Counted from the stretch's first letter, positions 4,760-22,067 are shown. The stretch is DNA of 32,000 nucleotides from Polynucleobacter corsicus (GCF_018688255.1 NZ_CP061314.1:2000659-2032658), one strand, 5' to 3'. The notes: a model not told the origin generated them from the letters alone. Numbers and translations are program-made.

Positions 4760-4762
4760 TGA

Positions 4763-4842
4763 TATCGTTTTAAACGACATTACCAGCACAAGGATGAATA
4801 ATTGAAGCGTCCTTTTAAAGGACGCTTCATGATGGGGATATC
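4763..4842. repeat. dual-palindrome intergenic repeat, copy 2
   Basis: Palindrome 1 is TCGTTTTAAACGA (4765-4777). Palindrome 2 is AGCGTCCTTTTAAAGGACGCT (4806-4826). The tail CATGATGGGGATATC is at 4828-4842. Confidence 0.85.
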
Positions 4843-4880
4843 CCGCTCTAATGGCGTCTAACCCTGCCAAGACCCAAAAG

Positions 4881-4937
4881 AAAATAGCCCAACAAGTGGG
4901 CTATAGAGATTCTTGGTGGCCCGGGGCGGAATCGAAC
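4881..4937 (-). pseudogene. terminator hairpin plus 24-nt tRNA-Phe 3' fragment (CCA end to T-loop); att remnant
   Basis: 57 bp identical to 11890-11946. The tRNA part is 4914-4937, and identity ends inside the T-loop (..AATCGAAC). Confidence 0.8.
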
Positions 4938-5015
4938 TAGGGCCGAGGATGCCTGATCCAAGCTCTTTTTAATTTCGTTGTACTCAAATCGAGCTTTTGG
5001 ATTTACCTTGGAATG

Positions 5016-5417
5016 TTACTGAGCCCATTGCTCACAAAGTACAGTTGGGTTTCCATAGCCCCGCCCATTTTCCATTCCAGAATTCATGCAATAGTTAAAT
5101 CTTTCTAAAGCACGCCCAGTTAAGCCTGTGTTGTATACGCCCGCTCCTGACGTTCCTACTGAAGGAGGCGGCCCCCCAGAGCAAACCAATTGACCGTTTT
5201 GTGCAGAGATATTCGTACATTGGGTGGCATTTGTAAGTCTTGCCGCTACCCATTGGCCTCGCCCATTCTGACAAGACGCTACCATAGTTGTCCCCTCCAT
5301 AGCTGATGCTTGACATGAATTAGACCAATTGCCAGGAATCATTCGATATGGCTGAGCATTTGTCTGAAATGCAAGAAGTGTGAAGAAAGTAAAAACCGAT
5401 ACTCTAAGAAATAACAT
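5016..5417 (-). CDS. small secreted Cys-rich protein with a cyanovirin-N-like (CVNH) half-repeat pattern
   Basis: Sec signal is MLFLRVSVFTFFTLLAFQTNAQ. NWSNSCQASAMEGTTMVASCQNGRGQWVAARLTNATQCTNISAQNGQLVC resembles the CVNH pattern sC..(g)..L.A.C....G.w....L...C..i.N.nG.L. The domain call is tentative. Confidence 0.55.
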   Translation of the reverse strand: MLFLRVSVFTFFTLLAFQTNAQPYRMIPGNWSNSCQASAMEGTTMVASCQNGRGQWVAARLTNATQCTNISAQNGQLVCSGGPPPSVGTSGAGVYNTGLTGRALERFNYCMNSGMENGRGYGNPTVLCEQWAQ

Positions 5418-5536
5418 GGCAGTTCCTTTTAATTATTTAAATATCCGTTGGTGATAAGAACAAACTTAATCTCCCTCTCTTTGGAGGCTGTACTTCAGAG
5501 TGAAGTCATACTGTCTGGCAAAAAGCATGCTGGACA

Positions 5537-6784
5537 TTAACGCAAGAGAATTCCTGGTGATACTGGGATACTGCCAGGGACTTTATTAAGGCTTAGTAAT
5601 TGCGAAATAATCTTCAAGACCATTGGCGAATAGCCGTTATCGTTTGCTGGAATACTATGAACATCGTCATCAATATTTTTTACTCTTGCAAAATTTTTAT
5701 TACTTGAGTCATTTTTTCTGACAATCAATAAGGCATATTGATTTTCTTGGCCGATTTTTCGAGCTTGAGTAGTTGCTGATGGAGGCAATGTAACAATGAA
5801 GGGGTTTTCTTGATTCTGGGCGGATACTACCTGTCCAAGATATTCGAAGACTGTATTGGGTGATCGAATGGTTAAGATTAGTTCAGATTTAGAGCTCTTA
5901 TTTTTAGGGGCGTTTAGACTTGCTTTGCAAAAAATGTCAGAGCTAAATTCTTCTTTAACAAAGTTGGCAAATTTGTTCTCATCAACGCAAATCTTAAATT
6001 GAGGTTGCAGTTGCATTTGGCCGTACATTCCACCATAAGCACCGGATGATCCACCATACCCGCCATACCCACCTGGACTTTGATAAGACGATGGCATGTT
6101 AGGTTGTGAATAGTTTGCTGTTCTACCTAATGCAGGAGAACTATTTTTCTTTGGCCCCTCTTTGACCTGATCAACAGTCAAGCCGTAACTTAGCAACTTA
6201 TAAAGCTCGGCTTGGAAGGCGGGATATTCTGGTAAAAGCGGATTGTTTATATACCGAGTAGATTTACCATCAGCTTGCTTAATTTCAATTGAAGCAACTA
6301 CTAGACTAAACATTACCTCTCTTGGGATGTTATCGGAAATAAAAAACTTGGCAGTTCCAATAGGGATTTGAGATAAAAATCCTTGCAGAAAAGTGGCATT
6401 ATCAAGTGAGGACTGGGAAAAGTTAAAACTATTACCAAAGGATGGTGCAAGAGTCGGGCTAAGTGAGCTTATGCCAAGAGGGCCGCCCGCAAGTCCTCCA
6501 ATGAAACCATTCATTGATGGACCTAATCCTGTATTAAAACTTACATTTCCAGATCCATTGATGCTGGGAATATCTAGAAAACTTAAAGGGCGCTCATTGG
6601 ATGCGCGGATGATATTAATCAGGATGCTATTTAATTGGTACTGCTCCAAAATGATAGCGTAGCGTGCCGACATCTCTGTAAAGTCTGGAGTGACGGGAGT
6701 AGTGCAACCCCCAATCAATATTGTTATTGAAATTGAGCTACAAATTGCTTTGATGCCATTAATGATGGTGGAATTCACTGACAC
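5537..6784 (-). CDS. lipoprotein of unknown function with a Gly/Tyr-rich low-complexity segment
   Basis: Lipobox-like ILIGGC near the N-terminus. Internal SYQSPGGYGGYGGSSGAYGGMYGQMQ. I recognise no family. Confidence 0.6.
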   Translation of the reverse strand: MSVNSTIINGIKAICSSISITILIGGCTTPVTPDFTEMSARYAIILEQYQLNSILINIIRASNERPLSFLDIPSINGSGNVSFNTGLGPSMNGFIGGLAGGPLGISSLSPTLAPSFGNSFNFSQSSLDNATFLQGFLSQIPIGTAKFFISDNIPREVMFSLVVASIEIKQADGKSTRYINNPLLPEYPAFQAELYKLLSYGLTVDQVKEGPKKNSSPALGRTANYSQPNMPSSYQSPGGYGGYGGSSGAYGGMYGQMQLQPQFKICVDENKFANFVKEEFSSDIFCKASLNAPKNKSSKSELILTIRSPNTVFEYLGQVVSAQNQENPFIVTLPPSATTQARKIGQENQYALLIVRKNDSSNKNFARVKNIDDDVHSIPANDNGYSPMVLKIISQLLSLNKVPGSIPVSPGILLR

Positions 6785-6920
6785 CCCAAGAATTGAACTA
6801 TGTTCGAAATCTAGGTCGGTAGGTTTGGCAAGATGCCAAGTCAGCTCAGAGGTCTGTTGGAATCATACTAACTGATTACAGTTGGTGATGGAGTATATAA
6901 AGGGTAAACACTTGAAATAT

Positions 6921-7053
6921 TTGTCGTTTAAAACGACATCGCAAGCACCGGCCCTAGATGACAGTCGCTTAAATAGACGCAGGACCGACACAGGGATGAC
7001 AAATCCCCAATAAATAAAGCGTCCTTTTAAAGGACAGTTCATGATGGGGGGAT
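6921..7053. repeat. dual-palindrome intergenic repeat, copy 3 (expanded spacer)
   Basis: Palindrome 1 is GTCGTTTAAAACGAC (6923-6937). Palindrome 2 is GTCCTTTTAAAGGAC (7021-7035). The tail CATGATGGGGGGAT is at 7040-7053. The spacer is about 50 bp longer than in the other copies. Confidence 0.8.
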
Positions 7054-7132
7054 GTGAACGGCAACTGTAAACTATGTGGTCGGTACCGGACGTAAAGCAT
7101 GTGTCCGGTACGGACCCGGTACGGACCGGTAT

Positions 7133-7390
7133 TTCTTGGTGGCCCGGGGCGGAATCGAACCACCGACACAAGGATTTTCAAATATCCTCCGATAGACCGC
7201 TTTCGCTTTAATTTCAAGGGCTTGAGTGACCAGTCTCGACTTGTCTAAAAATTGTGCGTCCTTGTGCCGGTCAAATTTGGCAATGAAATCAGAATCTTGC
7301 GAGGGACTATTTTTCCGTGTGTACAGATTGTGTCGCCATACCCTACCAGTCAATCACCATAGTGTCTATGAATGTCGTTTAAAACGACAT
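7133..7390. repeat. 258-bp repeat, copy B
   Basis: 256/258 identical to 2197-2454. Ends in the palindrome ATGTCGTTTAAAACGACAT (7372-7390). Confidence 0.9.
7137..7181 (-). pseudogene. tRNA-Phe 3'-half fragment; att remnant
   Basis: 45 nt identical to 11923-11967, diverging inside the anticodon loop. Confidence 0.85.
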
Positions 7391-7404
7391 TTCAACTGGC
7401 GTTC

Positions 7405-8451
7405 TTAAATTAGCGGTGGGAATGTATACCCATCAACTTTAAATACTTTTAAGCAAGCGTTAACGACATCAGCATCAAATAGCTTGTCACTACCCATAGC
7501 GATTTCTTCTAATGCGGCATCTATACCTTTACCTTTTCTGTAAGGGCGATCAGATGACATTGCCTCTACTGTGTCTGCCACACCCAGAATACGAGCCTCC
7601 TCACAGACAATATCGCCTTTAATTGCGTTGGGGTAGCCACTGCCATCCAAACGCTCATGATGCTGAAGAACTGCTTGAGCAATATTCCAAGGAAAGTGAA
7701 TATGTTTGAGCATGTCATAGCCAGCTTGAACATGATTCCTAAGCATGGCGACCTCAAAGTTGCTTAGGGCGATGGGCTTTGTGAGAATTTCTGCGGAAAT
7801 AGAAATTTTGCCAATATCGTGAACTAAGGCGGCCATACGAACACCTTCAATGGTATGTATGGGCAAATTCATTTCCGTGGCAATTGCCACAGCCAAATTT
7901 GCCACGCGCTTTTGATGTCCGCCCGTATATGGATCGCGAGCAACAATGACATTGGCTAAAGTGTCAACCATTTCGTTCATAGAAATGTTGACTGAGTGCT
8001 GATACTCGAGCAACTCCTTTTCTAGCTTTTTTCTATCTGAGATGTCGCGAATATTACATTGAATAACGCGGTCGCCATTAACGCCATAGGCATTGCTGAT
8101 AAACTCTACATTAATAATCTCTTCATCTTTTCGTTTTAATGGGAGATCTTCATAGCGTATGTAGCCCTTGTCTTTGAGCACGGTAAAGGCTGTTAAAGCC
8201 GCGGCTTTATCTACCATCGCGCCAATTTCCCACAACTCTTTACCGATGAGCTCATCTCTTGTAAAGCCCAGTAGGTTAGTAATGAATGGATTAGCGTCTT
8301 GAATGACTCCCGTTTGAAAATCAAGTATCAAGATACCATCTTGAGCGGTCTCAAATAATCGCCTATAGCGTAGCTCTGATTGTTTGGCTAACTGTTCTTT
8401 GTTTAAATCGTTTGTCATCAATATATTTGGTGAAATCAATAAATCCACCAT
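7405..8451 (-). CDS. PAS-domain HD-GYP protein (predicted c-di-GMP phosphodiesterase)
   Basis: N-terminal PAS ([16 protein letters not shown]...[25 protein letters not shown]). HD-GYP motifs are VHDIGK and [11 protein letters not shown]. Confidence 0.9.
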
Positions 8452-11922: not shown

Positions 11923-11998
11923 TGGTGGCCCGGGGCGGAATCGAACCACCGACACAAGGATTTTCAATCCTCTGCTCTACCGACTGAGCTACCAGGCC
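11923..11998 (-). tRNA. tRNA-Phe (anticodon GAA), 76 nt with encoded CCA
   Basis: Reverse complement is GGCCTGGTAGCTCAGTCGGTAGAGCAGAGGATTGAAAATCCTTGTGTCGGTGGTTCGATTCCGCCCCGGGCCACCA. It folds as a cloverleaf: 7-bp acceptor stem, anticodon loop TTGAAAA, T-loop TTCGATT. Confidence 0.95.
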
Positions 11999-12002
11999 AA
12001 GA
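11960..12002. repeat. attL-type 43-bp direct repeat (tRNA-Phe anticodon loop to 5' end plus 4 nt)
   Basis: ATTTTCAATCCTCTGCTCTACCGACTGAGCTACCAGGCCAAGA is identical to 22025-22067. Confidence 0.85.
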
Positions 12003-12007
12003 CTGCT

Positions 12008-12013
12008 ATTATA
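12008..12013 (-). promoter_or_regulatory. candidate -10 box (TATAAT) driving tRNA-Phe, supplied by the island side
   Basis: On the minus strand TATAAT sits 9 nt upstream of the tRNA 5' end. A second TATAAT (22074-22079) sits 10 nt beyond the displaced 5'-half copy. The -35 is weak. Confidence 0.4.
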
Positions 12014-12265
12014 CGCAAACTGTTCTTAAAGCTGTTAAAAAATCCTCTACTGTGCGTTTCCACCTTGTAGTTATCAGCCTTTCTGCTGTATGCACGCTAT
12101 ACAAAATAGTTTTCACTGTGTCCATTTTGTCCCACTGTAAAAACCCTGCGTTTACTTAAACCACACCCTACAAGCACACAAAACCTACCAAAATATTGCT
12201 GTTAGCAGTTGTAGCACACCAAAAATCAGGTTGTCCTTGTACTGTGCTGACACTACGCTATAAAA

Positions 12266-13519
12266 ATGCGTCGTCCGTTTACACAGTTAGTTAAAGCACA
12301 AGGTACAAGTAGCAACAGCCTCACCACCTTACAAAATGACAACATTGTGTACTTGCGCGACGGAGAGGTAGTGCTGTACAAGCGTGAAAACAGTAGCGTA
12401 TGGCAGATGCGCTACAGGCTATATGACAAGGAGTGGCGCAGGGTAAGCACAAAGCATCACAACATAGACTACGCAATACGAACAGCAGGCGACATATATG
12501 ACGAGGCGAGATTTAGAGAGCGTTTAGGATTGTCGTTCACTCGTCGCAAGTTTGGTGCTATCGCTAAAGTTTGTTTACAAGATATAAGAACAGAAATAGA
12601 CGCTGGCATAAAGCCAATGACTAACAGCGACTACACAAGAGCAATAAACAAATATCTTATTCCGTTTTTTGAAAACTACTATATAGAAAATATAGACGCA
12701 GAAGTAATGCGTCAATATGAAGTGTGGCGCAATGAACTAATGAAACGCATTCCGTTAGCGAGTACATTAGCAACTCACGCAAGCGCATACAGACGAGTGA
12801 TAGACACAGCAATACAGCGTGGATGGTTGAGCGAAAACTTACCTACAGCACAAATGAGTAGGCGTGGAGAGAAAGGTAAGGCGCGACCAGGCTTCACGCG
12901 AGCAGAGATTGATTACTTGTTAGATTTTTTAGATAGCTACAGTAAAGGTGGGCACAGTGCTCGCGCAAAAGAAATGCGCTTGTTGAGTAGAGACTACATA
13001 GAGTTATTGATTGGTACAGGTATGCGCTGTGGCAAAGAGAGCCTACACATTAAATGGAAGCACATAGAGTGGTACATAGACAGCAACACAGCAAAACGGT
13101 ACCTGCGTATATGGGTAAGCGGAAAAACAGGCGCACGCCACCTAATTGCTAAGCACAAAGTACAAGAAGCATTAGAGAGATTAATAAGTAGAGAGCCAAT
13201 ATTTAATGGCAAAACATTGGACATGGTGCTAGCAGAGAAGCATGATGTTTATTTGTTTAAGCTATCTGACGGCGATCGTCCAAAGAGCTTTCACACAACA
13301 TTTAATTGGCTAATGAAAGCAAGTGGCTTACTTAAAGATGCGGCTACAGGACAGAACAGAACACAATACAGCCTGCGCCATACCTATGCCACCCTAGCAC
13401 TTACTGATGGCGGCATGGATGTACATACACTAGCAAAGCAAATGGGAACAAGTGTTGGGATGCTTGAAAAACATTACAGCAAGCTAACGGCGACAATGGC
13501 GGCGGATAGATTGGCTTAA
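12266..13519 (+). CDS. tyrosine-type site-specific integrase
   Basis: 417 aa. C-terminal catalytic signatures are GMRCGKESLHIKW (R), YSLRHTYAT (H-x-x-R) and MGTSVGMLEKHYSK (Y). Lies adjacent to attL. Confidence 0.9.
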   Translation: MRRPFTQLVKAQGTSSNSLTTLQNDNIVYLRDGEVVLYKRENSSVWQMRYRLYDKEWRRVSTKHHNIDYAIRTAGDIYDEARFRERLGLSFTRRKFGAIAKVCLQDIRTEIDAGIKPMTNSDYTRAINKYLIPFFENYYIENIDAEVMRQYEVWRNELMKRIPLASTLATHASAYRRVIDTAIQRGWLSENLPTAQMSRRGEKGKARPGFTRAEIDYLLDFLDSYSKGGHSARAKEMRLLSRDYIELLIGTGMRCGKESLHIKWKHIEWYIDSNTAKRYLRIWVSGKTGARHLIAKHKVQEALERLISREPIFNGKTLDMVLAEKHDVYLFKLSDGDRPKSFHTTFNWLMKASGLLKDAATGQNRTQYSLRHTYATLALTDGGMDVHTLAKQMGTSVGMLEKHYSKLTATMAADRLA

Positions 13520-13539
13520 GCGTAAATTTTTTTTACGCT
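13519..13539. repeat. 21-bp palindrome family, copy a (AGCGTAAA-ttttt-TTTACGCT)
   Basis: 8-bp inverted arms and a 5-nt T-rich spacer. Overlaps the last base of the integrase stop codon and lies 10 nt from the REase stop. Confidence 0.85.
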
Positions 13540-13549
13540 TGCCACTTAG

Positions 13550-14602
13550 CTAAAGTCTTATTAACAAGTTAAATTTGAAAAACTTATCATCAAAAACCTT
13601 TCCGAAGTCATGCCGTGTTGTGCTTGCCGTATCAAAGAAGCTATGCTCAAAAAGATAGTCATTAAGGTTGGTGTTGGATTGGGTATCGTCTAAATAAAAA
13701 CTAGCTAATTTGCCATCAGCCTTAACTACGATCATTCCACCGTTCGCCGATAAGGATCCATTCCAAAGATCTCGTGGCACCATACCAAATGCTGTAGCTG
13801 TCAAAAATTTAGAAATGATCTTTTGGTAGTCACTTGTATTGGTGAAATTGAAAGGGTTTTTATTCGCCACAATCGCCAATAAATCTTTTATATATTTTTC
13901 CCTATTGCTGGCTCCATAGTATTCAACAAGTAAGCGACTAATAAGAATTTCTAAATTTTGATCCACCCTTTGTAAGTTTTGCTTGTATGTTTGATTAACA
14001 GAGCCGAGATGCTTCAGTGGCAATGACTTAACAAGTCTGCCTAAATTTTTAGGTGTCGGGTCGGCTATGCTAATTTTAGAGGGTGCTTCATATAAAAAAT
14101 TAGTGGATTGTGAGGCGTTTAATAAAGAAGTTGCGCCACCTAAATTACTTTTGATGCTAAAGCCTTTTATGGCTTTGGTTTGACTGGCTGAGTCATAGAT
14201 CTCTAGCTTAATATCACTTTTTTCAGAGCGAGTTGCTTTTATTTGAGGATTAAAAAAGTCATTCCACAGACTATCAAGCTGATTAAAGCTAAAGGTTGTT
14301 GATGTGGAAGTTTGGATCTGTTGGAAAAGGCTTGTAGCAATACCTTTTACATCACCAATTGGAATGCTGTTGTTTTGCCCATCATAGTTAGCAATAACAG
14401 AATCATTTTGAACAGCTAAGCTAACAAATTTATTGGGAGCATCTGTGGGTATAAGGATTGAATGAACTTTATATTGACTGGTATTTTGGTCGGCTAAAGA
14501 TTTGTCGGACAAAATAAAATTGGCATTACCAATCAGAGCAAGAAGCGCATACGCCTCACTCCATTCACCACGATTCATTGTTAAGTTTTGTATCCTGCTC
14601 AT
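13550..14602 (-). CDS. type II restriction endonuclease, HpaII-like family (predicted CCGG)
   Basis: 350 aa, immediately downstream of the C5-MTase. The N-terminal NRGEWSEAYALLALIG matches the KGEWSE-Y-x-L-K-LL signature I recall for HpaII-family enzymes. The lack of CCGG in the island is consistent with this. Confidence 0.65.
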   Translation of the reverse strand: MSRIQNLTMNRGEWSEAYALLALIGNANFILSDKSLADQNTSQYKVHSILIPTDAPNKFVSLAVQNDSVIANYDGQNNSIPIGDVKGIATSLFQQIQTSTSTTFSFNQLDSLWNDFFNPQIKATRSEKSDIKLEIYDSASQTKAIKGFSIKSNLGGATSLLNASQSTNFLYEAPSKISIADPTPKNLGRLVKSLPLKHLGSVNQTYKQNLQRVDQNLEILISRLLVEYYGASNREKYIKDLLAIVANKNPFNFTNTSDYQKIISKFLTATAFGMVPRDLWNGSLSANGGMIVVKADGKLASFYLDDTQSNTNLNDYLFEHSFFDTASTTRHDFGKVFDDKFFKFNLLIRL

Positions 14603-14625
14603 AAAAGGCAGGATACATCAAACTA

Positions 14626-15558
14626 TTAATTTTTAGAACTTTTAATATATTTGATAATTGATTTAGCAACTTCTTGTATCGCATCAACGGCAACACTATT
14701 ACCAAGCTGTTTCATTGCCTGACCTTTGGCAACAGGAAATTGAAAATCATCAGGGAATCCCATCATCTTCTTCCCTTGTTCAACGCCCAACCTCTTTACT
14801 TGTCCATCCACTAAGTAAGCATCCCAATTTCTTCTATCATCTATGCCTGAGCCTTTTCCTCCAACCCGAAGAGTAAAGCCAATCTCCCGAGAACATTCAC
14901 CACCCCAAACATCAGACATATTAAATTTCAATTCTTTTTTGTCAGGAAATTGAAATGGCTCTTTGTAATCATCTTCTTTGCGGAAACCAATAATAAAAAT
15001 TCTCGGTCTATGCTGTGGTAGCCCGTAGTCAGAAGCTTTCACGACCTTGTAGTGAATGTCATACTCAAGTTCTACTTGTAGTATTTGCTTAATTACATCA
15101 AATGTTCTGCCAGTGTCGTGATTTTGTAGGTGCCTTACATTTTCCAAAAAAAATGCTTTGGGTCTCTTAGTTTTTAATATGTCTCTAATGTGAAAAAACA
15201 TATTACCCCGTGACTCATGTTCTTCATTAAATCCCTTTTTATGTCCAGCCTGTGAGAAAGGCTGACAAGGAAATCCCGCACAAAGAATGTCATGATCAGG
15301 AATATCATCAGGATCAATATTTGTAATGTCGTCATTAAATAAGGGACTATCAAACATATCTTCGCTAAACAAGTTAGGCGAGATGGACTTAAAGTTTTCT
15401 TTATAAGTCTTGCGGGCGAAAGGATCTTTCTCAGACGCAAATACGCATTCACTCCCTTCATTATGAAATGCGATGTGGAAGCCGCCAATTCCTGCGAACA
15501 GATCAATAAACTTAAGTTTATTTTTGTTTGATTTGGATGGTTTGCGTGTTTTATTCAT
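14626..15558 (-). CDS. DNA (cytosine-5)-methyltransferase
   Basis: Canonical C5-MTase motifs: I DLFAGIGGF, IV GFPCQPFS, VI ENV, VIII QHRPRIFIIG, X GNSVAV. The variable region is short. Confidence 0.92.
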   Translation of the reverse strand: MNKTRKPSKSNKNKLKFIDLFAGIGGFHIAFHNEGSECVFASEKDPFARKTYKENFKSISPNLFSEDMFDSPLFNDDITNIDPDDIPDHDILCAGFPCQPFSQAGHKKGFNEEHESRGNMFFHIRDILKTKRPKAFFLENVRHLQNHDTGRTFDVIKQILQVELEYDIHYKVVKASDYGLPQHRPRIFIIGFRKEDDYKEPFQFPDKKELKFNMSDVWGGECSREIGFTLRVGGKGSGIDDRRNWDAYLVDGQVKRLGVEQGKKMMGFPDDFQFPVAKGQAMKQLGNSVAVDAIQEVAKSIIKYIKSSKN

Positions 15559-15589
15559 AGTGATTTATTTTTTAATTATATTGTCTTTT

Positions 15590-15610
15590 AGCGTAAATAT
15601 TTTTTACGCT
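15590..15610. repeat. 21-bp palindrome family, copy b (AGCGTAAA-tattt-TTTACGCT)
   Basis: Lies between the MTase start (15558) and the stop of the 279-aa gene (15617). Confidence 0.85.
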
Positions 15611-15616
15611 TATTTT

Positions 15617-16456
15617 TTACTTACTCTTCTTTGTTCCTGTTGGTCGCCCAGCTTTACGCTTATAAGGGGTTGTTATTGCTTCAGTAAAGTTCTTATCGGA
15701 TGGGAATCTTCCTCTTGCCGCATTCTCAGCAACTAATGACGCACAGCGAATCAATCTGCTTGCGGCAATGCTAAGCAATTCTTTTCTATCTGCTAATTCA
15801 GCCTCTAATATGTCGCCCGCCTCTGACTCAATAAATGACTGTGCTGGGATAAGTCTTAGGTGATTGCCAATTTTCCAAAGTGGCACATCCTTCTTATATA
15901 AGCGTAATGCGGTTAATCCATTCTGTAATGTATCAATGCGCAATTTACTATTTGACAGTTGGTATAAGGGCGCTACTTGTTTTGGCAGATCTGCTGAAAA
16001 TCCATAACCCTCTAATTGCTTGCGTAGTTGTTTAAGTGCTTGCGGAAGAGTTAGATTAAGAGGTAATTCAGCCACTACTGAATTAACTCCCGCCCATTCA
16101 TTTATTAATTGCTTTTTAGTTGAATCTAAAACGCCTACAACATTGACTTTTGGTAATGGCGCACTTATCCCATATAACCGCATGCCTATCTCACCCCACC
16201 AGTCTGCTTCCCGCATTTTGTAGATTGGACCAAAGTCACTTACAACTTGCGCTACATCCTTAAAGTCTTTTGGTAATGGGTAGGGTGATTTTTGCTTAGC
16301 TAATTTACGCATTACAGCTTCATAGCTGGGACTTGCTTTTAGGTAGTCACAAACCAAGTCATATCGCAAATCAGGTTTAACTGAAATTCCAGTCTGTTCA
16401 TAGCTTGCCTCCAATGACATAAGGCGTGGGAGAGGTTTTCGTCCTAAATTAGCCAT
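15617..16456 (-). CDS. hypothetical protein with a basic AT-hook-like C-terminal tail
   Basis: 279-aa ORF with no overlapping alternative. The tail YKRKAGRPTGTKKSK contains a GRP core. I recognise no family. Confidence 0.6.
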   Translation of the reverse strand: MANLGRKPLPRLMSLEASYEQTGISVKPDLRYDLVCDYLKASPSYEAVMRKLAKQKSPYPLPKDFKDVAQVVSDFGPIYKMREADWWGEIGMRLYGISAPLPKVNVVGVLDSTKKQLINEWAGVNSVVAELPLNLTLPQALKQLRKQLEGYGFSADLPKQVAPLYQLSNSKLRIDTLQNGLTALRLYKKDVPLWKIGNHLRLIPAQSFIESEAGDILEAELADRKELLSIAASRLIRCASLVAENAARGRFPSDKNFTEAITTPYKRKAGRPTGTKKSK

Positions 16457-16596
16457 TTAATATTAACAAGTATAGATAAATTATCTCATCATAATAATTC
16501 ATGTTAATAAATCTTACAATAGATACATAGATTGAACAAAGCAACACAGTTCATCCCTCTTTAACAATTAGCAAATTTTTGTAGTAGCAGTAAGCA

Positions 16597-16617
16597 AGCG
16601 TCAATTTTTTTGACGCT
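16597..16617. repeat. 21-bp palindrome family, copy c (AGCGTCAA-ttttt-TTGACGCT)
   Basis: Sits in the divergent intergenic region, 72 nt upstream of ATG 16689. Flanked by direct TAGCAGTA octamers. Confidence 0.85.
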
Positions 16618-16688
16618 TAGCAGTAGTCAGTGTGTAAGCAATTTAGCAAGCACGCTTTTAATCAACGCCATTTCTTAAGGAGATAAAC

Positions 16689-17501
16689 ATGGCTAAATCA
16701 GTAAGCAGTAAAACAGCATTGTCCGCACAATCAATCATTGAGAAAGCGGATGCTTTAGTAAAACAGCGTGAAAACTTTGAACAAAATGAATACGCACGCA
16801 GTAATCAGCGTTTGTATGAAATTTTGGCGCAAGTGTTAGAAATGTATGAACAAGCAAGTATTAGCAAAACAACTTTGTCTGAAACTGTTAAGCAAATGAA
16901 GGCTAAGTTAGAAGCAAGTAAAGTGCGTGTTCAGACTAATACGCTGGCATTAACACTATTTGTGCGCTATGTATTCCGCACTGATAGACAACGCAGTATG
17001 AACTACAGCAGAACTTTACAGGCGGCTTTACAGCAAGGCATTAATGCTAAGCAGTTAGCGCAGTTTGTAGAGGACTGTGGCGGTGTAGAGCAATGTAAGA
17101 AGCGTTTTACTAAATCAGAGAAGGTTGTGGCAAAGGAAACTGTTATTGCTAACAATCTAGCTTTAGTAGATGACACATTAGCTAGCTTAGCTGAAAACCC
17201 ATTAGCAACATTTAAGGTTCCTAATAGTGTTGTAGCTACTACCTATGACAAAGAGTTTGTATTTGTAATTGGTAAGGCTGACAAGCAAGGCAACATTAAG
17301 GCGCTTGGTGCTGTGCCAGCATATTCAGCGGGCATGGCTAAGTGGGCTAAACAGCAATTAGCCTTGTTTATTAGTAATCAGCAGGCAATTACTAAGAAGC
17401 ATGCTAATGCTAAGCGCAAGGACACAGCACTTGCTACCGCAAAGTCTGCCGCAAAAAGCAAAACGCCCACTGAAACAGTAGGCGAATTGTTAGCGGCTTA
17501 A
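16689..17501 (+). CDS. hypothetical protein, first gene of a two-gene operon with the AAA+ ATPase
   Basis: 270 aa, with AAGGAG 6 nt upstream of the ATG. Appears helical with a basic Ala/Lys-rich tail. I recognise no family. Confidence 0.6.
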   Translation: MAKSVSSKTALSAQSIIEKADALVKQRENFEQNEYARSNQRLYEILAQVLEMYEQASISKTTLSETVKQMKAKLEASKVRVQTNTLALTLFVRYVFRTDRQRSMNYSRTLQAALQQGINAKQLAQFVEDCGGVEQCKKRFTKSEKVVAKETVIANNLALVDDTLASLAENPLATFKVPNSVVATTYDKEFVFVIGKADKQGNIKALGAVPAYSAGMAKWAKQQLALFISNQQAITKKHANAKRKDTALATAKSAAKSKTPTETVGELLAA

Positions 17502-17570
17502 CTTACAAAAGTGTTTTGAAACTTGGGCTGGGTGTTGGCGCACTCAGCCCACAAACAAAGGATAACTGAT

Positions 17571-18227
17571 ATGAATAGTAATTTCAAGTATCGCCCTCAG
17601 ACTATAGATGAGTTTGTTTTTGCTACACCTAAATTGGAGACACAAATCAAACGCTATACGCAGGGTAAGTCATTATTACCATTGGTGCTATATGGAGCAT
17701 ATGGGACTGGCAAGAGTTTATTGGCAGACTTAATTCCAAAGGCATTAGATGGCGCAGATGTAAAAGTTAATTACATCAACGCAGAAGAATTAAACAATGC
17801 TAATGATGTGCGTAAAAAGTTTTTTCGCTCTGTTCAATTTGATAAGTTCTTTACAACTAATGGACAAAAACACAACTACACCGTAGTAGAGGAGGTTAAT
17901 TTTGATCCTAAAGCAAAGGGCGCATTACGAGTGTGCTTGGATGATATGGCTGAGCGAGAACTGTTTATCTTCACAACAAATGAAGTTGATAAGATAGATA
18001 AAGGCTTGCTTAGCAGAGCTGAAGTAGTTGAAGTATTGCCTGCGCCACCTGATCGTTTCTTCCCTCGCGCACAGCACATATTACGCAGTGAAGGAGTTGA
18101 TTTAGAAGACAGTGTCTTGCGTGATGTGTTGGAAACAGTGTATGAGAACGATTATGATAATCGTGCCTACTATCGTGCTTTAGATGAAATTATTGAAGCA
18201 TGGAATGACAACACACTACAGCAATAA
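17571..18227 (+). CDS. clamp-loader-like (RFC small subunit / T4 gp44-like) AAA+ ATPase lacking the collar domain
   Basis: FKYRPQTIDEFVF (RFC box II, compare gp44 KYRPSTIDECIL). Walker A is GAYGTGKS, Walker B-like is VVEEV, sensor-1 is FTTN, and the SRC-like arginine finger is SRA. ATG 17571 has AAGGA 8 nt upstream. Confidence 0.7.
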   Translation: MNSNFKYRPQTIDEFVFATPKLETQIKRYTQGKSLLPLVLYGAYGTGKSLLADLIPKALDGADVKVNYINAEELNNANDVRKKFFRSVQFDKFFTTNGQKHNYTVVEEVNFDPKAKGALRVCLDDMAERELFIFTTNEVDKIDKGLLSRAEVVEVLPAPPDRFFPRAQHILRSEGVDLEDSVLRDVLETVYENDYDNRAYYRALDEIIEAWNDNTLQQ

Positions 18228-18230
18228 TCA

Positions 18231-18251
18231 AGCGTAGATTTTTTTGACGCT
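18231..18251. repeat. 21-bp palindrome family, copy d (AGCGTAGA-ttttt-TTGACGCT, imperfect)
   Basis: Starts 4 nt after the ATPase stop. Has one mismatch and one G-T pair in the arms. Confidence 0.75.
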
Positions 18252-18259
18252 TAACTTTT

Positions 18260-18293
18260 AAGCCCGCTTATTAACTTAGGCGGGCTTTTTTTA
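18260..18293 (+). terminator. Rho-independent terminator between convergent genes
   Basis: AAGCCCGC-12 nt-GCGGGCTT followed by a T7 run. Confidence 0.8.
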
Positions 18294-18857
18294 TACCAAC
18301 TCAACAGCCTTACGCATCATATCGTCCGACGCAAAAATATAGATGGAAGTTGTCTGTATGTCCTTATGTCCCATTAAGTGCTGTAGTACCTTAATACCCA
18401 CACCATTGCTTGCTAAGTTCGTTGCGAAAGTCCTGCGTCCGCTATGTGATGAGGCTTTAATACCTGCTTTGCGATAGAGCCAAAAGAACCATTGTGTCAG
18501 CGTGTTAGCAGAAAACCCATTTGACTTTTCTGTAGCAAACAAAGGCAGTGATGTGTCTTTAGGTGAGTAATGCTTTAAGTAAGTAGCTAATTCAGTTCGT
18601 AGCTTTTCATTTACAAACACCACCCTTCCTTTGTTGCCCTTCGTTTGACTGGCAGATAAGCGTATCTCGCTTTTAATCGTTCCATCTTCATTTCGCACAT
18701 CGCATATTCTTAGTGCGGCAATCTCCCCAACTCGCATCCCACTCCAACAGCTTGTCAGTAGCATCGCCCTGTTTCTAATGCTGTATTTCTGTTTTGTGCT
18801 GATGTAGCGCAATACCATATCTATTTCTGATTGATTTAATGTTTTTGCTTGTGCCAT
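18291..18857 (-). CDS. small tyrosine recombinase, catalytic domain only (FimB/FimE-sized)
   Basis: 188 aa. Catalytic residues are present: GMRVGE (R), TKGNKGR (K), HSGRRTFAT (H-x-x-R), LMGHKDIQTTSIYIF (H..Y). There is no N-terminal core-binding domain. Confidence 0.85.
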   Translation of the reverse strand: MAQAKTLNQSEIDMVLRYISTKQKYSIRNRAMLLTSCWSGMRVGEIAALRICDVRNEDGTIKSEIRLSASQTKGNKGRVVFVNEKLRTELATYLKHYSPKDTSLPLFATEKSNGFSANTLTQWFFWLYRKAGIKASSHSGRRTFATNLASNGVGIKVLQHLMGHKDIQTTSIYIFASDDMMRKAVELV

Positions 18858-19161
18858 TTTCTTGCTCCATAAAAGAATTTATTGTTATTAGTATGTTTTC
18901 TTATTAGCAAAATTCCTACCGAAAAATGGCAGAAAAAGATCTTCCATAAATCAATGACTTACGCAGTCAAAGTAGCTCGTTATAAGAATTTAGTAATTTT
19001 CTTATTACGCCGTAGTCAATAAGCCACACCTATAGCAAGCCCTATACGCTTTTATTTAAGCGTTCTGTAGCTTGGGTATTAACTTAGTCGGAATTTTGCT
19101 TTGTAGCGTTGATTTGATGTATTGCTGTGCTACGCTTATAAAACCAACGCTAAAGGACTAT

Positions 19162-19650
19162 ATGAGTGATATGTATTTGACAGAAGCTGACTTTAATTTT
19201 CAGAGTGATAACGCTGAATTAAGAGAGAAGGCTGAAAATATTGTCAATTTCACAAGCTCAGTCCTTTTAGATTTAAGCGACGAAGATATTGACGCTATCA
19301 AGCAGTTAGAGGACATATTTCTATCTTTACAAGATTCCTTATTTTCAAATTCAGACACAATATTAAAAAGTAAGCGTTTGGGTTTTACGGAAGAAGATAA
19401 AAAGAAGTTAGATGAACTACAAATAATTCTTTTAGATAAGTGGAAAGAATTTGGATTCACCGAAAGCTTCTTTCATCGGCTATATCAAGTTCAGCGCCAA
19501 TTGAATGGTTCTGAATTAAACGCCAATCAGAGCGAACGCTTAGATTTGTTATTTCAAATACTTAATGAACAGAAAACCCTTGTAATTGCTTTCAATGTAA
19601 TGCGTAGTAAGGATCGCCCTGTGATATTGGATGTAGAAGAATATATGTAG
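19162..19650 (+). CDS. hypothetical acidic helical protein
   Basis: ATG 19162 has AAAGGA 6 nt upstream and is preferred over the upstream TTG 19072. No recognisable motifs. Confidence 0.5.
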   Translation: MSDMYLTEADFNFQSDNAELREKAENIVNFTSSVLLDLSDEDIDAIKQLEDIFLSLQDSLFSNSDTILKSKRLGFTEEDKKKLDELQIILLDKWKEFGFTESFFHRLYQVQRQLNGSELNANQSERLDLLFQILNEQKTLVIAFNVMRSKDRPVILDVEEYM

Positions 19651-19684
19651 ATATATGCCACGCAAAATTTCAGGTAGTAGCTGT

Positions 19685-19754
19685 AAATTTTTGTAGCGCA
19701 GTTTTTAAGGGGTGCGTAGATCTTAGCCACTGGTGATTTAATCTAACCACACCC
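19685..19754 (+). repeat. ~70-bp degenerate direct repeat, copy 1
   Basis: Shares the identical blocks TGTAGCGCAGTTTT and TTAATCTAA, in the same order and spacing, with 21613-21682. Lies just after the stop of 19162-19650. Confidence 0.6.
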
Positions 19755-19756
19755 TA

Positions 19757-20071
19757 TTAAGCCGAATCTATTACATCTCCGTTGCCATCTTCTAATTGAT
19801 AGACATGTTCTGTGGTGCCTTTGCGATCACTGAACCAATCATCATCTTCATAGTTTTCATATTCAATGTGATAAAGCATCTTATAAAGTTCAAACCAAAC
19901 ACTTGGGTCTGATGGTGCTTCGTCAGGATATTCCTCCAAATCTTCACCACTACTTTGTTCTACACGAGATTTAAGTGCTTCCCATTGATCTTGATCTTCT
20001 GTATCAAACTCTTCCCAAAATGATTGAATAACAGTTTGATATAGATCTTGTTTCGCTTTGAACTTAGGCAT
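19757..20071 (-). CDS. small, highly acidic protein (candidate DNA mimic / anti-restriction-like)
   Basis: 104 aa, with AGGAA 7 nt upstream of the ATG. I count about 29 D/E against 8 K/R, with aromatic residues interspersed (EYENYEDDDWF). Confidence 0.6.
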   Translation of the reverse strand: MPKFKAKQDLYQTVIQSFWEEFDTEDQDQWEALKSRVEQSSGEDLEEYPDEAPSDPSVWFELYKMLYHIEYENYEDDDWFSDRKGTTEHVYQLEDGNGDVIDSA

Positions 20072-20815
20072 TGTAAATTCCTATTAAGTTGAGAAATCAA
20101 ATAAGTTATTACATTGATAGGCGAAATACATTCGCCTGTGATTTCGCTTGCGCTCATCACCTTTTCTTCTCTAACTATACTAATAAAATATTAAGCTGAG
20201 TTAATGCTTAATGAACTTTTGATAGATTCAACCTACACTGAGCCTTAAGCAACAGGCTCAGTTATAGAAAAGTTCTTTTGATGAGTTCTTTACTACACCA
20301 CTATAAGCACAACCAATTGGTAAGGGCGGTTTCGCTATCTCCTTTTATGTGCGGCTTAAAACGCAACAATGACAAAAGCAATAAGTGGCTACCTTTATCT
20401 TGTTTGAAAGTTGCTGTGTAAGCAGGGCTTTCTCGTGACGCTCACAGCCCTATAGGCTGTCGTCTTTGTGCTGTTCATATACTTGATTCAATTAGTTAGC
20501 AAAGCTAATAGCGTCCTGTTAAGGATAGTGAATACAAGTCTCTGCTACCGCACAGAAATTCCATCCCTGTGACTCTTAGTCCAGTTTTAGGGCGACATAA
20601 CAACTGAGTGTCGCTACTCGTTATCGGTAGTAATTGTTGGCATATAGAGCTTTCTTCTGTTCTATTTGTCTAATTTATTTATACAAGTGATAAGAATAGA
20701 AATAAGAATCTGGCTTTTTATTTGGTAAGAATGGGGCTTTGTCCGTAAGCCTCTTGTCCAGTTAAAAACTCTGGCAATAAATTAAGTGTGTTCATTAACT
20801 TATAGGAGAAATAGC

Positions 20816-21256
20816 ATGAGCACATTAAGCACTTTGAAGTTGGTAGCAGTAAAAAAGCCAACCCATATACCAGCACTACAGCATCGCCGTAATAAGCTGT
20901 CTAACAAGTTATGGGAGCAAATCAATTTGGCGCAAAGTCAAATTGATGGCAAGCCGTTTGTAGTAATGAAGTTTCGCTCGGTTAAAGATATTGAAACGGG
21001 CTTACGCAAACAAGTAGAAATTCCCAAACGCATTAAAGCGTGGTGGTTTGTAGCAGACACAGGCAAGGTTTGCTTTTCTGTGAAATACGGCACACGCACT
21101 TTGGAGTTGGCGAAAGGCAAACCCAGTGTTCAAGTAGAAAGCGCAGAAGACTTAGTTAAAGCATTAACTGCCATTAAGTCAGCAGTGGAAGCTGGTGAGC
21201 TTGATAGTCAAATTGAAGAAGCAAGCAATGCGCTACGCAAAGGATTTGGCAAATGA
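20816..21256 (+). CDS. hypothetical protein, first of three translationally coupled genes
   Basis: ATG 20816 has TAGGAG 7 nt upstream. 146 aa. Its stop overlaps the next ATG as ATGA. Confidence 0.6.
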   Translation: MSTLSTLKLVAVKKPTHIPALQHRRNKLSNKLWEQINLAQSQIDGKPFVVMKFRSVKDIETGLRKQVEIPKRIKAWWFVADTGKVCFSVKYGTRTLELAKGKPSVQVESAEDLVKALTAIKSAVEAGELDSQIEEASNALRKGFGK

Positions 21257-21396
21257 AGCAATACAGGCTATGGGTACGCATCAATCAAACGCAAACAGCC
21301 AATACGATTGTGTTTGCGGACAATGCGTATACGGCAAAGCAATTAGGTGAGGCGCAGTATGGAGCTGGTAATGTGCTGAACTATACGGAAGTATGA
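21253..21396 (+). CDS. 47-aa small protein, below the ORF-track cutoff
   Basis: MKQYRLWVRINQTQTANTIVFADNAYTAKQLGEAQYGAGNVLNYTEV. ATGA overlaps both the upstream stop (21253-21256) and the downstream start (21393-21396). Confidence 0.5.
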   Translation: MKQYRLWVRINQTQTANTIVFADNAYTAKQLGEAQYGAGNVLNYTEV

Positions 21397-21614
21397 GTAG
21401 TGCTTTAGTGGGGGCTGGGTTAAATACTTGTATGCGCTTTTATGAATTTGCCCACACCCCCACAATCAAGCCTATCAAGCCAATGAACCCACAGCAATAT
21501 CGCCTGTATAGCCTAAAGCGCAACAAAGAAAATGCTAAGAAGGCTTATAAGGCTGAGAAGGATAGGCAGACTGTAGCTAAAGCACAGCAACAGATTTTCA
21601 AAGCTACTCACTAA
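21393..21614 (+). CDS. small basic hypothetical protein
   Basis: 73 aa with a Lys-rich C-terminal half (KRNKENAKKAYKAEKDRQ). Coupled to the 47-aa ORF. An internal start at 21432 is possible. Confidence 0.45.
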   Translation: MSSALVGAGLNTCMRFYEFAHTPTIKPIKPMNPQQYRLYSLKRNKENAKKAYKAEKDRQTVAKAQQQIFKATH

Positions 21615-21682
21615 AAATCTGTAGCGCAGTTTTCAAACGCCACGCAGAACCTAACCCCCACCAGTTTTAATCTAATACCCCC
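21613..21682 (+). repeat. ~70-bp degenerate direct repeat, copy 2
   Basis: See 19685-19754. It starts at the stop codon of 21393-21614. Confidence 0.6.
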
Positions 21683-21796
21683 CAATAACTATTAAATGTG
21701 AAATATGTGTTTTGACGCAAAAAGCGTGGGTTTTTGGCAGTTTTTATATGTATTTTTATTTTGGTATGAGTGGGGACGAGAGGCTATGCTGAAATG

Positions 21797-21817
21797 GGCG
21801 TAAATTATTTTTACGCT
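21797..21817. repeat. 21-bp palindrome family, copy e (GGCGTAAA-ttatt-TTTACGCT)
   Basis: The first base is G instead of A; otherwise the architecture is the same. It is the last copy before attR. Confidence 0.75.
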
Positions 21818-21935
21818 ACTCAACATACTTTCTGCCAGCACCATAAAACACTTTTTCAACACACCAAGCAATATTTTTTTCTGCGCTGTATCAATAGAAA
21901 ACGCTTGTAAATATTTTTACTGTGTAAGTTTTTTA

Positions 21936-21962
21936 GTGTCACTGTGTCACACAGCGTGTCAC
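21936..21962 (+). promoter_or_regulatory. three direct GTGTCAC heptamers, candidate arm-type recombinase/RDF binding sites near attR
   Basis: GTGTCAC occurs at 21936, 21944 and 21956, and overlaps the palindrome CTGTGTCACACAG. Related YACTGTG motifs lie at 21918 and 21940, and near attL at 12048, 12114, 12133 and 12240. Confidence 0.35.
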
Positions 21963-22024
21963 GCACCACTTTGCTATCGCCCTGCGAAGCATATAAACAT
22001 TGGGCTTTTGACTACCGTAGGAGT

Positions 22025-22067
22025 ATTTTCAATCCTCTGCTCTACCGACTGAGCTACCAGGCCAAGA
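22025..22067. repeat. attR-type 43-bp direct repeat (displaced 5' half of tRNA-Phe)
   Basis: Identical to 11960-12002. There is no tRNA 3' half next to it. Confidence 0.85.

Follow-up and report, generated by a model that had tools for sequence, protein, structure and literature searches.

Conserved 21-bp palindromes punctuate a previously undescribed family of mobile islands in freshwater bacteria

We analyzed a 32,000-nucleotide stretch of Polynucleobacter corsicus DNA (GCF_018688255.1, NZ_CP061314.1:2000659-2032658; hereafter the window, or W), which holds a ~10-kb island, from about 11957 to 22067, that lies in tRNA-Phe and is bounded by a 46-nt direct repeat. Five copies of a 21-bp palindrome separate the genes of this island, and comparison with related loci shows that these palindromes are real, family-wide, element-specific sites, which occupy fixed positions, are not constrained to form hairpins, and coincide with recombination breakpoints. 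The islands are a previously undescribed family of mobile islands of Polynucleobacter and other freshwater bacteria, with the palindromes as their conserved punctuation; no account of either the family or the motif was found in the literature searched. We regard it as highly probable that the palindromes are element-specific sites at which a protein binds duplex DNA, at the boundaries of modules and of transcription units. As to what they do there, our tentative preference is for boundary operators bound by an island-encoded 279-aa protein, with module exchange as a by-product of the short homology that the sites share. Throughout, S3 and S4 denote sites 3 and 4 of the window; P279, P270, and REC188 denote its 279-, 270-, and 188-aa proteins; and relatives, numbered L001 upward, are fetched genome or metagenome loci.

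Palindromes in the window

A preliminary description of the window, made from its sequence alone, had reported five copies of the palindrome AGCGTMAA-N5-TTKACGCT. Our pattern scan of the window found exact matches at three places (13519-13539, 15590-15610, and 16597-16617), as well as two copies that are one base off the pattern, namely 18231-18251, which reads AGCGTAGA, and 21797-21817, which starts with GGCGT. When up to two mismatches were allowed, seven matches were found, as compared with 0.01 expected, and none of 100 shuffles reached seven; the five reported palindromes are real, and the other two matches, at 17809 and 19276, both lie within coding sequence and are probably due to chance. 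All five copies are intergenic, with the first A of copy 1 forming part of the integrase TAA stop, and the gaps that flank the restriction-modification (R-M) gene pair measure 10 nt (13539 to 13550) and 31 nt (15558 to 15590), as originally reported. On the plus strand, the spacers of copies 1 to 5 read TTTTT, TATTT, TTTTT, TTTTT, and TTATT, and the orientation of the sites is constant, independent of the direction of neighboring genes.

Outside the island, at 4806-4826, the window has a sixth AGCGT-N11-ACGCT palindrome, which has a G+C-richer center and reads as a perfect 25-bp palindrome, GAAGCGTCCTTTTAAAGGACGCTTC. It lies between convergent open reading frames (ORFs) of unknown function, and the neighboring genes have no homologs in the fetched loci. 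The chance expectation for this looser pattern is ~0.02 per window, and the copy may be coincidental, or else a relic or an isolated target site.

Conservation of the sites among related islands

With an alignment of P270 homologs, we fetched 62 related loci (five from genomes and 57 from metagenomes), which comprise 509 kb. The pattern [AG]GCGT-N11-ACGC[TC] has 155 matches in these loci, as compared with roughly two to four expected by our own estimate, whereas AGCGT-N11-ACGCT has only three matches in the ~219 kb of related loci that lie outside the outermost sites. The motif is ~50-fold rarer outside elements than inside them (about one per 100 kb as compared with one per 2 kb); the preliminary description had named genome-wide abundance at the 3' ends of unrelated genes as evidence against its proposal, but in the fetched loci the motif is confined to the elements. 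Apart from the 4806 palindrome of W and one nonpalindromic match in L027, no copy of the motif lies in the chromosomal sequence that flanks the islands of W, L003, L004, L012, and L027. In the T-rich orientation, the consensus is yAAGCGT-A-(A/G)-A-TTTTTTT-(T/G)-ACGCTTr. An 11-bp spacing is present in 196 of 230 relaxed matches, the pentamers themselves being set by the search pattern, and the two half-sites (AGCGTM) vary independently around a center made up of A and T only.

ORF calling, clustering, and mapping of the loci revealed a shared order, which comprises, on the left, tRNA-Phe and its terminator, an inverted left-end site, the integrase gene, variable cargo (mostly R-M genes), and a site; in the middle, P279 (minus strand), S3, P270, the ATPase gene, f7 in some loci, and S4 with an intrinsic terminator; and on the right, optional cargo with a site, REC188 (minus strand), variable genes, the Polynucleobacter-1 RNA, the DUF6641 gene, a right-end site, and attR. 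Related loci share the same backbone order and orientation, with the distant L061 as the exception. The sites hold fixed positions in this order, namely the island ends, the integrase stop, the P279 stop, the P279/P270 intergenic region, and the end of the ATPase/f7 operon; most are 0-30 nt from a stop codon, and the P279 gene has sites on both sides. Sites at the integrase stop, as in W, are also present in L007, L047, L053, L055, and L057; S3 has one orientation across 26 loci and lies inside ~200 nt of conserved sequence, a control region. Most relatives have their left-end site in the stretch that separates the tRNA-Phe terminator from the integrase start; W, whose tRNA-Phe points away from the island, has no left-end site. 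The site-5 21-mer, inverted between the two ends, accounts for 19 of the 21 end sites of relatives.

Two further subfamilies were identified. Subfamily 2, found through the P279 homologs P0212 and P0231, encodes a P279 that is convergent with a 190-aa recombinase, a 448-aa integrase that is 34% identical to that of W, and a DUF6641 protein, but neither P270 nor the ATPase. Its sites read AGCGTTAC-TTTAA/TTAAA-GTAACGCT, with the pentamers and spacing unchanged and the inner arms changed symmetrically, and in L063 all four sites read lie at gene 3' ends. Subfamily 3 (L083 7424-13472, L084, and L085) is integrated at the rpoD 3' end with the att repeat AGAAGCTCTTWAGTTTGTCGCTTCT, and it encodes an integrase (43% identical), a small recombinase (67-72% identical), and DUF6641 and has a slot for variable cargo; neither P279 nor AGCGT palindromes were found inside the element in these three loci. 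Subfamily 3 keeps both recombinases and lacks both P279 and the sites, and the sites therefore co-occur with P279 and not with either recombinase. At 4302-5830, L083 also contains a stand-alone unit, in which an integrase gene is flanked by two sites, each with one pentamer mismatch, and no P279 was found among the called genes of this 16-kb locus.

Module exchange at the sites

The preliminary description had proposed that the palindromes delimit functional blocks, and both locus maps and BLAST alignments bear this out, with related islands differing block-wise at these points. The ends of high-scoring segment pairs (HSPs) between loci cluster 10-11 nt from site centers, and 8.8% of them fall within 12 nt of a center, where random placement gives 1% and random placement within intergenic DNA 4.4%. 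In W, homology blocks end or start at 13519/13540, 15584-15590, 15610/15618, 18223-18231, and exactly 21817: at site 2, HSPs from the R-M side stop at 15610/15618 and those from the P279 side begin at 15584-15590, whereas at site 5 an 86% homology with L011 and L027 ends exactly at 21817. The islands are mosaics. Between W and L027, protein identity is 42% for the integrase, 92% for the methylase, 28% for P279, 73% for P270, and 93% for REC188, and across islands that share only 41-48% identity in the integrase and 25-28% in P279, the methylase remains 88-93% identical. Sites lie on both sides of cargo in W, L007, L015, L022, L047, and L065.

The relatedness of sequences to the left and to the right of a site correlates poorly at S3 (r = 0.45) and at S4 (r = 0.21), whereas at 10 of 11 control positions inside modules r was 0.81-0.95, with the eleventh, inside REC188, at 0.50. 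To the left of S4, W is nearest to L028, L001, and L002 (0.90-0.93 identity); to the right, it is nearest to L027 and L024 (0.88, as compared with 0.63-0.65 for the others). Informative positions place this switch of identity at 18226-18256, a 26-31-nt interval that contains S4, which maps one historical crossover in the W lineage to the S4 interval, as read from these alignments. Moreover, at least five nonhomologous left flanks (three ATPase 3' variants, f7, and f10) join S4 at the same nucleotide, and in several unrelated ORFs the terminal Ala-stop is supplied by the GCG-TAA or GCG-TAG of the site. No switch of identity was located exactly at S3; those nearby map either within the coding sequence of P270 or to the left of S3, at a distance of 16-48 nt.

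Cargo also lies between direct site copies where relatives have one empty site, as the preliminary description would lead one to expect. L015 and L022 have an R-M cassette where L014 and eleven other loci hold a single S4; the cassette repeat of L015 is 62 bp long and consists of the site plus the terminator, duplicated together, and in L022 the arm of the first site copy is that of the backbone (AGA) and the arm of the second is that of the cassette (AAA). In L065, of subfamily 2, 1.7 kb of cargo, namely an RNase T-like gene and a VbhA/zeta toxin-antitoxin pair, is accompanied by exactly one extra 21-24-bp site, flank homology restarts at the site edges, and L064 and L066 have a single site there. 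A systematic search for empty versus occupied sites returned only these two clean events. We also considered whether contigs that have P279 but lack P270 and the ATPase are products of deletion between S3 and S4, and rejected this, the deletion being illegitimate with both ends outside the sites. These contigs (L072-L079) represent a decayed derivative that is abundant in one lake series, in which codon ~100 of the small recombinase is fused to the P279 upstream region (for example, L072 153-543), with loss of S4, the ATPase, P270, and S3; in L079, an insertion sequence (IS) lies just upstream of the fusion.

Such exchange could reflect dedicated site-specific recombination, in which the palindromes would be core-type sites, with two inverted arms around a short A/T overlap, and cassettes would be inserted, excised as circles, and exchanged by REC188, possibly targeted by P279, or by the integrase; the island would then be a cassette array by analogy with integrons or the pdif modules of Acinetobacter. 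We consider this unlikely, but a serious contender, because in L065 a site is duplicated exactly, junctions at S4 fall on a single nucleotide, and the island encodes a recombinase that is otherwise unexplained. The empty and occupied sites of L065 and L015/L022, the low correlations at S3 and S4, the W crossover, and the gathering of HSP ends at site edges all speak for it, as do (i) the integration module of W, which in circular form is bounded by sites 5 and 1; (ii) the center classes, which track hotspots, with TTATT at the ends and left cargo and TTTTT at S4 and its cassettes; (iii) the conservation of REC188 with its aligned active-site residues; and (iv) an arm spacing of 16-17 bp, which resembles dif. 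Against it, subfamily 3 has homologs of both recombinases and no sites; variable junctions without sites occur at the integrase stop in most loci, upstream of REC188 (the REC188-DUF6641 region), at the f7 indel, and at the subfamily-3 hotspot; swaps of the P279 module end outside S3; the crossover in the 62-bp repeat of L015 is not assignable to the site alone; and no deletion or inversion variants were seen between identical sites, the sole deletion, of the L072 type, having its ends outside sites. Further, we know of no characterized tyrosine-recombinase site as small as 8-bp arms around a 5-bp spacer. A minimal new system, in which P279 would guide REC188, itself without a core-binding domain, to 21-bp AGCGT-N11-ACGCT sites, and in which the two proteins together would carry out the insertion, excision, and exchange of whole modules, among them the integration module, R-M genes, and toxin-antitoxin genes, is in our judgment rather unlikely; if it exists, it would function as a cassette system of a third type, next to integrons and pdif modules.

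At the other extreme, the sites could be passive linkers, with no dedicated protein, whose shared border sequences allow homologous or microhomology exchange by the host, on the model of the "boundary sequence" idea for lambdoid phage mosaics. Breakpoints do coincide with the most extended stretches of conservation, namely the 62 nt of site and terminator and the 100 nt on either side of S3, and cargo is exchanged at site-less places too. However, mere linkers have no need for a palindrome, fixed pentamers, 11-bp spacing, and an A/T-only center among proteins that are ~50% identical; the sites decay or vanish without P279; and RecA-dependent exchange usually requires more than 21 bp. We therefore regard passive linkage as improbable.

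Orientation of the sites

The uniform spacer polarity emphasized in the preliminary description holds for the window, where all five plus strands are T-rich, but does not extend to the relatives. Backbone sites keep one orientation, whereas left-end sites are inverted relative to right-end sites; sites past the P279 stop are split 8:5 between the two orientations against the same flank, and sites past f19 flip too. In subfamily 2, the sites are near-perfect 8+5+8 palindromes, with orientation resting on one central base. Conservative recombination across an asymmetric overlap cannot alter the relation of a site to its flank, and these flips therefore count against a dedicated recombinase. The proposal that the palindromes are recombination sites is thus supported in part, by the block-wise swaps and the S4 crossover, and weakened by the flips, the site-less junctions, and the site-less subfamily 3. 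Operators for an island regulator, which the preliminary description had listed as an alternative, are rated slightly above dedicated recombination.

Both orientations would also be found if the palindromes were selfish miniature elements, similar to repetitive extragenic palindromic (REP) sequences and their REP-associated tyrosine transposases (RAYTs), that copied themselves into island intergenic DNA by means of an island protein. Consistent with this, a ~31-nt segment holding site 1 is missing from four relatives that have the same R-M pair and the same integrase/R-M junction, and in several loci the P279 gene lies between inverted sites, in a REPtron-like manner. Nevertheless, the sites hold fixed orthologous positions over dozens of loci, form no tandem or clustered copies, and are confined to the elements, and no HUH/Y1 transposase was found, with P279 having a single His; we judge this explanation very improbable.

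Duplex recognition versus hairpin formation

A further possibility is that the palindromes act as hairpins in RNA or single-stranded DNA, that is, as REP-like stabilizers of 3' untranslated regions, as terminators, or as attC-like folded recombination substrates. Their proximity to stop codons is in keeping with this, as are the predicted folds of the window copies (-6.3 to -12.2 kcal/mol, z-scores -2.8 to -6.9) and the full complementarity of the subfamily-2 arms, where AAA/TTT is replaced by TAC/GTA. However, the pair 6-16, beside the 5-bp outer stem, is Watson-Crick in only 17 of 51 unique strict sites, as compared with 18.4 in shuffles; the commonest S3 and S4 variants have conserved mismatches, with the latter folding weakly (-6.3 kcal/mol); and the outer stem shows no covariation. 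In a terminator scan, only copy 2 passed, and a T-tail is present in one of the five copies, and the canonical terminator that comes after S4 is a separate structure. Two of the site positions, S3 and the left-end one, precede genes, and Rfam gave no family for any of the five copies, the sole overlap being a below-threshold anti-hemB match at 18228-18294 (20.8 as compared with 49.5 bits) that spans S4 and the terminator. Hairpins are accordingly quite improbable, and the REP-like mRNA stabilizer that the preliminary description had offered is disfavored by the chance-level pairing at 6-16 and the weak fold of the commonest S4 variant. Because pair 6-16 is unconstrained, the S3 and S4 mismatches are conserved, and S4 has a terminator of its own, the evidence favors duplex DNA recognized by a protein.

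Several other readings were rejected. The TTGACG of the right arm resembles a -35 element, but no acceptable -10 follows, and a promoter scan returned fewer sites than shuffles did; integration host factor, LysR "T-N11-A", and sigma-54 sites fit poorly by eye. Arm-type sites of the integrase, hinted at by the end sites of L019, which are symmetric around attP, were set aside as a general account in view of the internal sites and of subfamily 3, with its 43%-identical integrase and no sites.

P279 as the candidate site-binding protein

We infer that P279 is the protein that binds the sites and that its binding insulates or silences. A protein search returned 169 homologs, and their alignment shows an invariant C-terminal AT-hook, RKAGRPxG, with the core R-K-A-G-R-P; in our own reading, the protein also contains a helix-turn-helix-like stretch, LQNGLxALRLY-x6-W-IGNxLRL. 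The presence of P279 together with sites in subfamilies 1 and 2, and the lack of both in subfamily 3, supports P279 as the candidate binder, and free orientation (the 8:5 split past the P279 stop and the subfamily-2 palindromes) fits a symmetric one.

In the mechanism that we propose, a P279 dimer would bind two AGCGTM half-sites, 11 bp apart around the A/T-only center, with the helix-turn-helix-like region reading the AGCGT pentamers and the AT-hook lying in the A/T-rich minor groove. Nearly all transcription units have a site at the 3' end, and sites also occupy both island ends and, in subfamily 1, the P279/P270 control region; these would serve as boundary operators, at which the bound protein may insulate or silence neighboring units and block read-through into and out of the island, much as might be expected by analogy with the stoperators of mycobacteriophage L5 and the KorB operators of IncP plasmids. 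The sites are the only sequence common to otherwise unrelated modules and, for that reason, also the places at which modules are gained, lost, and swapped, possibly through short-homology or homology-facilitated recombination, or through slippage deletion between direct copies. We give boundary operators their tentative preference because of the co-occurrence with P279, the free orientation, the site-less cargo junctions, and the placement of sites at island and unit ends.

Five points weigh against boundary operators. No DNA-binding fold or family matched P279 in Pfam, NCBIfam, PHROG, PDB, or BFVD; in particular, its predicted structure (AlphaFold2 predicted local distance difference test, pLDDT, of 82) had no match at E <= 0.001 in PDB or BFVD. 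The assignment of the binder draws on co-occurrence in only three subfamilies. In subfamily 2, no site was found in P279's own promoter region, which misfits a classic autoregulated repressor. The L065 cargo with its one extra site and the same-nucleotide junctions at S4 would be simpler with a dedicated recombinase. Finally, the pentamer centers are 16 bp apart, ~1.5 helical turns, such that a simple dimer would need strong DNA distortion. Searches with P279 gave no match in phage records and, among plasmids, only three weak Bradyrhizobium matches (27% identity), one of which lies near a truncated tyrosine recombinase among IS elements.

Gene content and borders of the island

The features of the island are listed in Table 1. 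The island adjoins the 5' side of an intact tRNA-Phe, with the 5' half duplicated, and it must therefore supply the tRNA promoter; a TATAAT lies ~8-10 nt upstream of the tRNA-Phe 5' end on the minus strand. Relatives (for example, L019 4837-5067) have the usual arrangement, with the 3' half from the anticodon loop captured and the opposite relative orientation, which means that W and its relatives use the same tRNA target loop with opposite halves captured. A ~75-nt repeat (71% identity; 19684-19757 and 21612-21686) ends in TTTAATCTAACCACACCCTAT, and a third TTTAATCTAACCACACCCTAT-like 21-mer is located at 12151-12171, just upstream of the integrase gene; these repeats may be arm-type sites of the integrase.

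Table 1. Coordinates of island features in the window
Feature	Position	Strand	Remarks
tRNA-Phe(GAA), integration target	11923..11998	-	ARAGORN; Rfam tRNA 68 bits; 5' half overlaps attL
attL, tRNA-Phe 5' half up to anticodon loop	11957..12002		46 nt, 98% identical to 22022-22067
Integrase, 417 aa, tyrosine recombinase, N-terminal extension	12266..13519	+	Pfam Phage_integrase and SAM-like domains; PHROG integrase
Site 1, AGCGTAAATTTTTTTTACGCT	13519..13539		Starts in integrase stop; 10 nt from endonuclease stop
HpaII-like restriction endonuclease (cargo)	13550..14602	-	Pfam RE_HpaII, E 2e-62
C5 cytosine DNA methyltransferase (cargo)	14626..15558	-	Pfam DNA_methylase, E 5e-77
Site 2, AGCGTAAATATTTTTTACGCT	15590..15610		6 nt past P279-gene stop; 31 nt upstream of methylase start
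P279, 279 aa, candidate site-binding protein	15617..16456	-	Pfam, NCBIfam, PHROG: none
S3, AGCGTCAATTTTTTTGACGCT	16597..16617		Within divergent P279/P270 intergenic region
P270, 270-aa helical protein, function unknown	16689..17501	+	
AAA+ ATPase, clamp-loader/replication factor C (RFC)-like	17523..18227	+	Pfam AAA; PHROG 168; NCBIfam RFC small subunit below cutoff
S4, AGCGTAGATTTTTTTGACGCT	18231..18251		3 nt past ATPase stop; cargo hotspot in relatives
Canonical intrinsic terminator, 11-bp stem and T-run	18260..18294	+	Directly 3' of S4
REC188, 188-aa Xer-like tyrosine recombinase, catalytic domain only	18291..18857	-	Pfam Phage_integrase, E 9e-29
REC188 leader, conserved, noncoding, ~240 nt	18858..19100	-	>30 loci; holds ACGCTT-N6-AAGCGT
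Polynucleobacter-1 RNA (Rfam RF01718)	20481..20619	-	101 bits; gathering score 37
DUF6641 protein	20786..21256	+	Pfam PF20346; PHROG 31551; conserved in all three subfamilies
Site 5 (right-end), GGCGTAAATTATTTTTACGCT	21797..21817		~205 nt inside attR
attR, second copy of tRNA-Phe 5' half	22022..22067		

A protein search with P270 returned 179 homologs, all unnamed, among them a P. corsicus protein of 100% identity, and an exact look-up of P270 in public assemblies gave no entry. A fold search of PDB with its predicted structure (AlphaFold2 pLDDT 82) gave no match at E <= 0.001; in viral contigs, neither the site motif nor relatives of P270 were found. The ATPase likely starts at the ATG at 17571 rather than at the TTG at 17523 of the mechanically called ORF.

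REC188 confirms the extra small tyrosine recombinase that the preliminary description had placed inside the island: it is conserved, aligns with XerA and XerD from PDB over only their catalytic half (residues ~100-290), and has the aligned active-site residues. At E <= 1e-10, it matches more than 3,000 proteins. By contrast with that prediction, the arrangement at 19046-19063, which had been suggested to be an "inside-out" scar, is no scar and belongs to the conserved REC188 leader. Common motifs of this leader include ACGCTTAAATAACAGCGT, TGTAGGGCTTG, and GTAAGTCATTGATTT, and parts of it survive in distant relatives. A related Polynucleobacter island, L082 (GCA_018881695.1), encodes a small recombinase that is 98% identical to REC188 at the protein level and has an extra 341-aa integrase (6920-7945) beside DUF6641, in a ~1.1-kb stretch that is not in W; we considered L082 as a recent exchange to map, but DNA identity is only 84-90%, so none was mapped.

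In W, REC188 is followed by two small ORFs and then by the Polynucleobacter-1 RNA, which appears in the literature searched only as an orphan candidate RNA. It scored 86-103 bits in all eight family-1 loci tested (L003, L004, L011, L014, L018, L019, L022, and L045), and it is a fixed component of the island family, always between the small recombinase and DUF6641 genes; in the subfamily-2 loci L063 and L067, it was not found at the gathering score.

Comparison with known systems

The island system is a member of none of the known systems with which we compared it, the closest being L5 stoperators, KorB operators, pdif modules, and attC sites. The stoperators of L5 and other cluster A phages, bound by the repressor gp71, are 13-bp asymmetric sites whose orientation follows transcription. 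Like the island sites, they are many, short, and dispersed over a temperate element but not the host chromosome, they lie in intergenic gaps at gene ends, and their proposed role, as predicted here, is to halt transcription once a protein encoded by the element has bound. In contrast, the island sites are 21-bp palindromes oriented independently of transcription, the candidate binder has no match to a repressor-like fold, and the sites are also points of module exchange. The KorB and KorA operators of IncP plasmids are palindromic and serve a global regulator encoded by the element; KorB is of the ParB family and has known folds, and its operators are not known as module junctions. Both kinds of site are scattered over a backbone, some at promoters and some far from any, but P279 has no detectable relation to KorB, and the island sites are module junctions.

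The pdif sites of Acinetobacter plasmids are 28 bp long (11+6+11), resemble chromosomal dif, and are attributed to host XerC/XerD, with the mechanism unproven. In both systems, sites with inverted arms bracket cargo (here, R-M and toxin-antitoxin genes) in either relative orientation, site-bounded modules recur in different backbones, and a Xer-like recombinase is suspected. However, the island sites are 21 bp long (8+5+8) and, by our own comparison, unrelated in sequence to the dif consensus, and REC188, with its catalytic domain only, scores 105 bits with the XerD model (cutoff 330) and 111 with the XerA model (cutoff 220); subfamily 3, moreover, keeps a small recombinase without sites. Integron attC sites are 57-141 bp long and imperfect, and their folded single strands, all oriented one way, are recognized by structure by IntI, which has a specific extra domain; most cassettes comprise one ORF with no promoter of its own, and all face the same way downstream of Pc. 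The islands are similar in having a site at the 3' end of cassettes, often overlapping the stop, arrays of site-separated units, and a hotspot beside a tyrosine recombinase gene. They differ in the 21-bp length of the sites, their fixed AGCGT/ACGCT pentamers, and the unconstrained pair 6-16; in multigene cargo with its own promoters on either strand; and in REC188, which matches TIGR02249 at 60.5 bits (cutoff 265) and NF011946 at 34.5 (cutoff 435), over the C-terminal catalytic stretch only.

The remaining systems are more distant. REC188 resembles FimB/FimE in its length of about 190 aa and in having no N-terminal core-binding domain, but it scores 40 bits with the invertase model, whose cutoff is 221, and no invertible segment was found. 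In shufflons (Rci/sfx), segments between inverted sites occur in both orientations, whereas the backbone orientation of the islands is constant in related loci save L061. REP sequences occur in hundreds of genome-wide copies, often clustered, and are associated with a Y1 HUH transposase, whereas the island motif has ~1 match per 100 kb outside elements in the fetched loci, and no HUH motif or related family match was found. Intrinsic terminators have a G+C-rich stem followed by a T-run, a combination that the sites lack, save for copy 2 in the terminator scan.

Implications

Polynucleobacter is a dominant, genome-streamlined freshwater bacterium in which strain differences lie mostly in genomic islands. 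The island family described here carries defense cargo (R-M and toxin-antitoxin genes) together with the orphan Polynucleobacter-1 RNA and is common in lake metagenomes, and its sites offer a precise point of entry into the partitioning and rebuilding of such islands. Should the sites prove to be substrates of a recombinase, they would define a new cassette system in which both enzyme and site are unusually small; should P279 instead bind them as boundary operators, it would represent a new DNA-binding fold whose 21-bp target is well defined, and stoperator-like logic would extend beyond phages.

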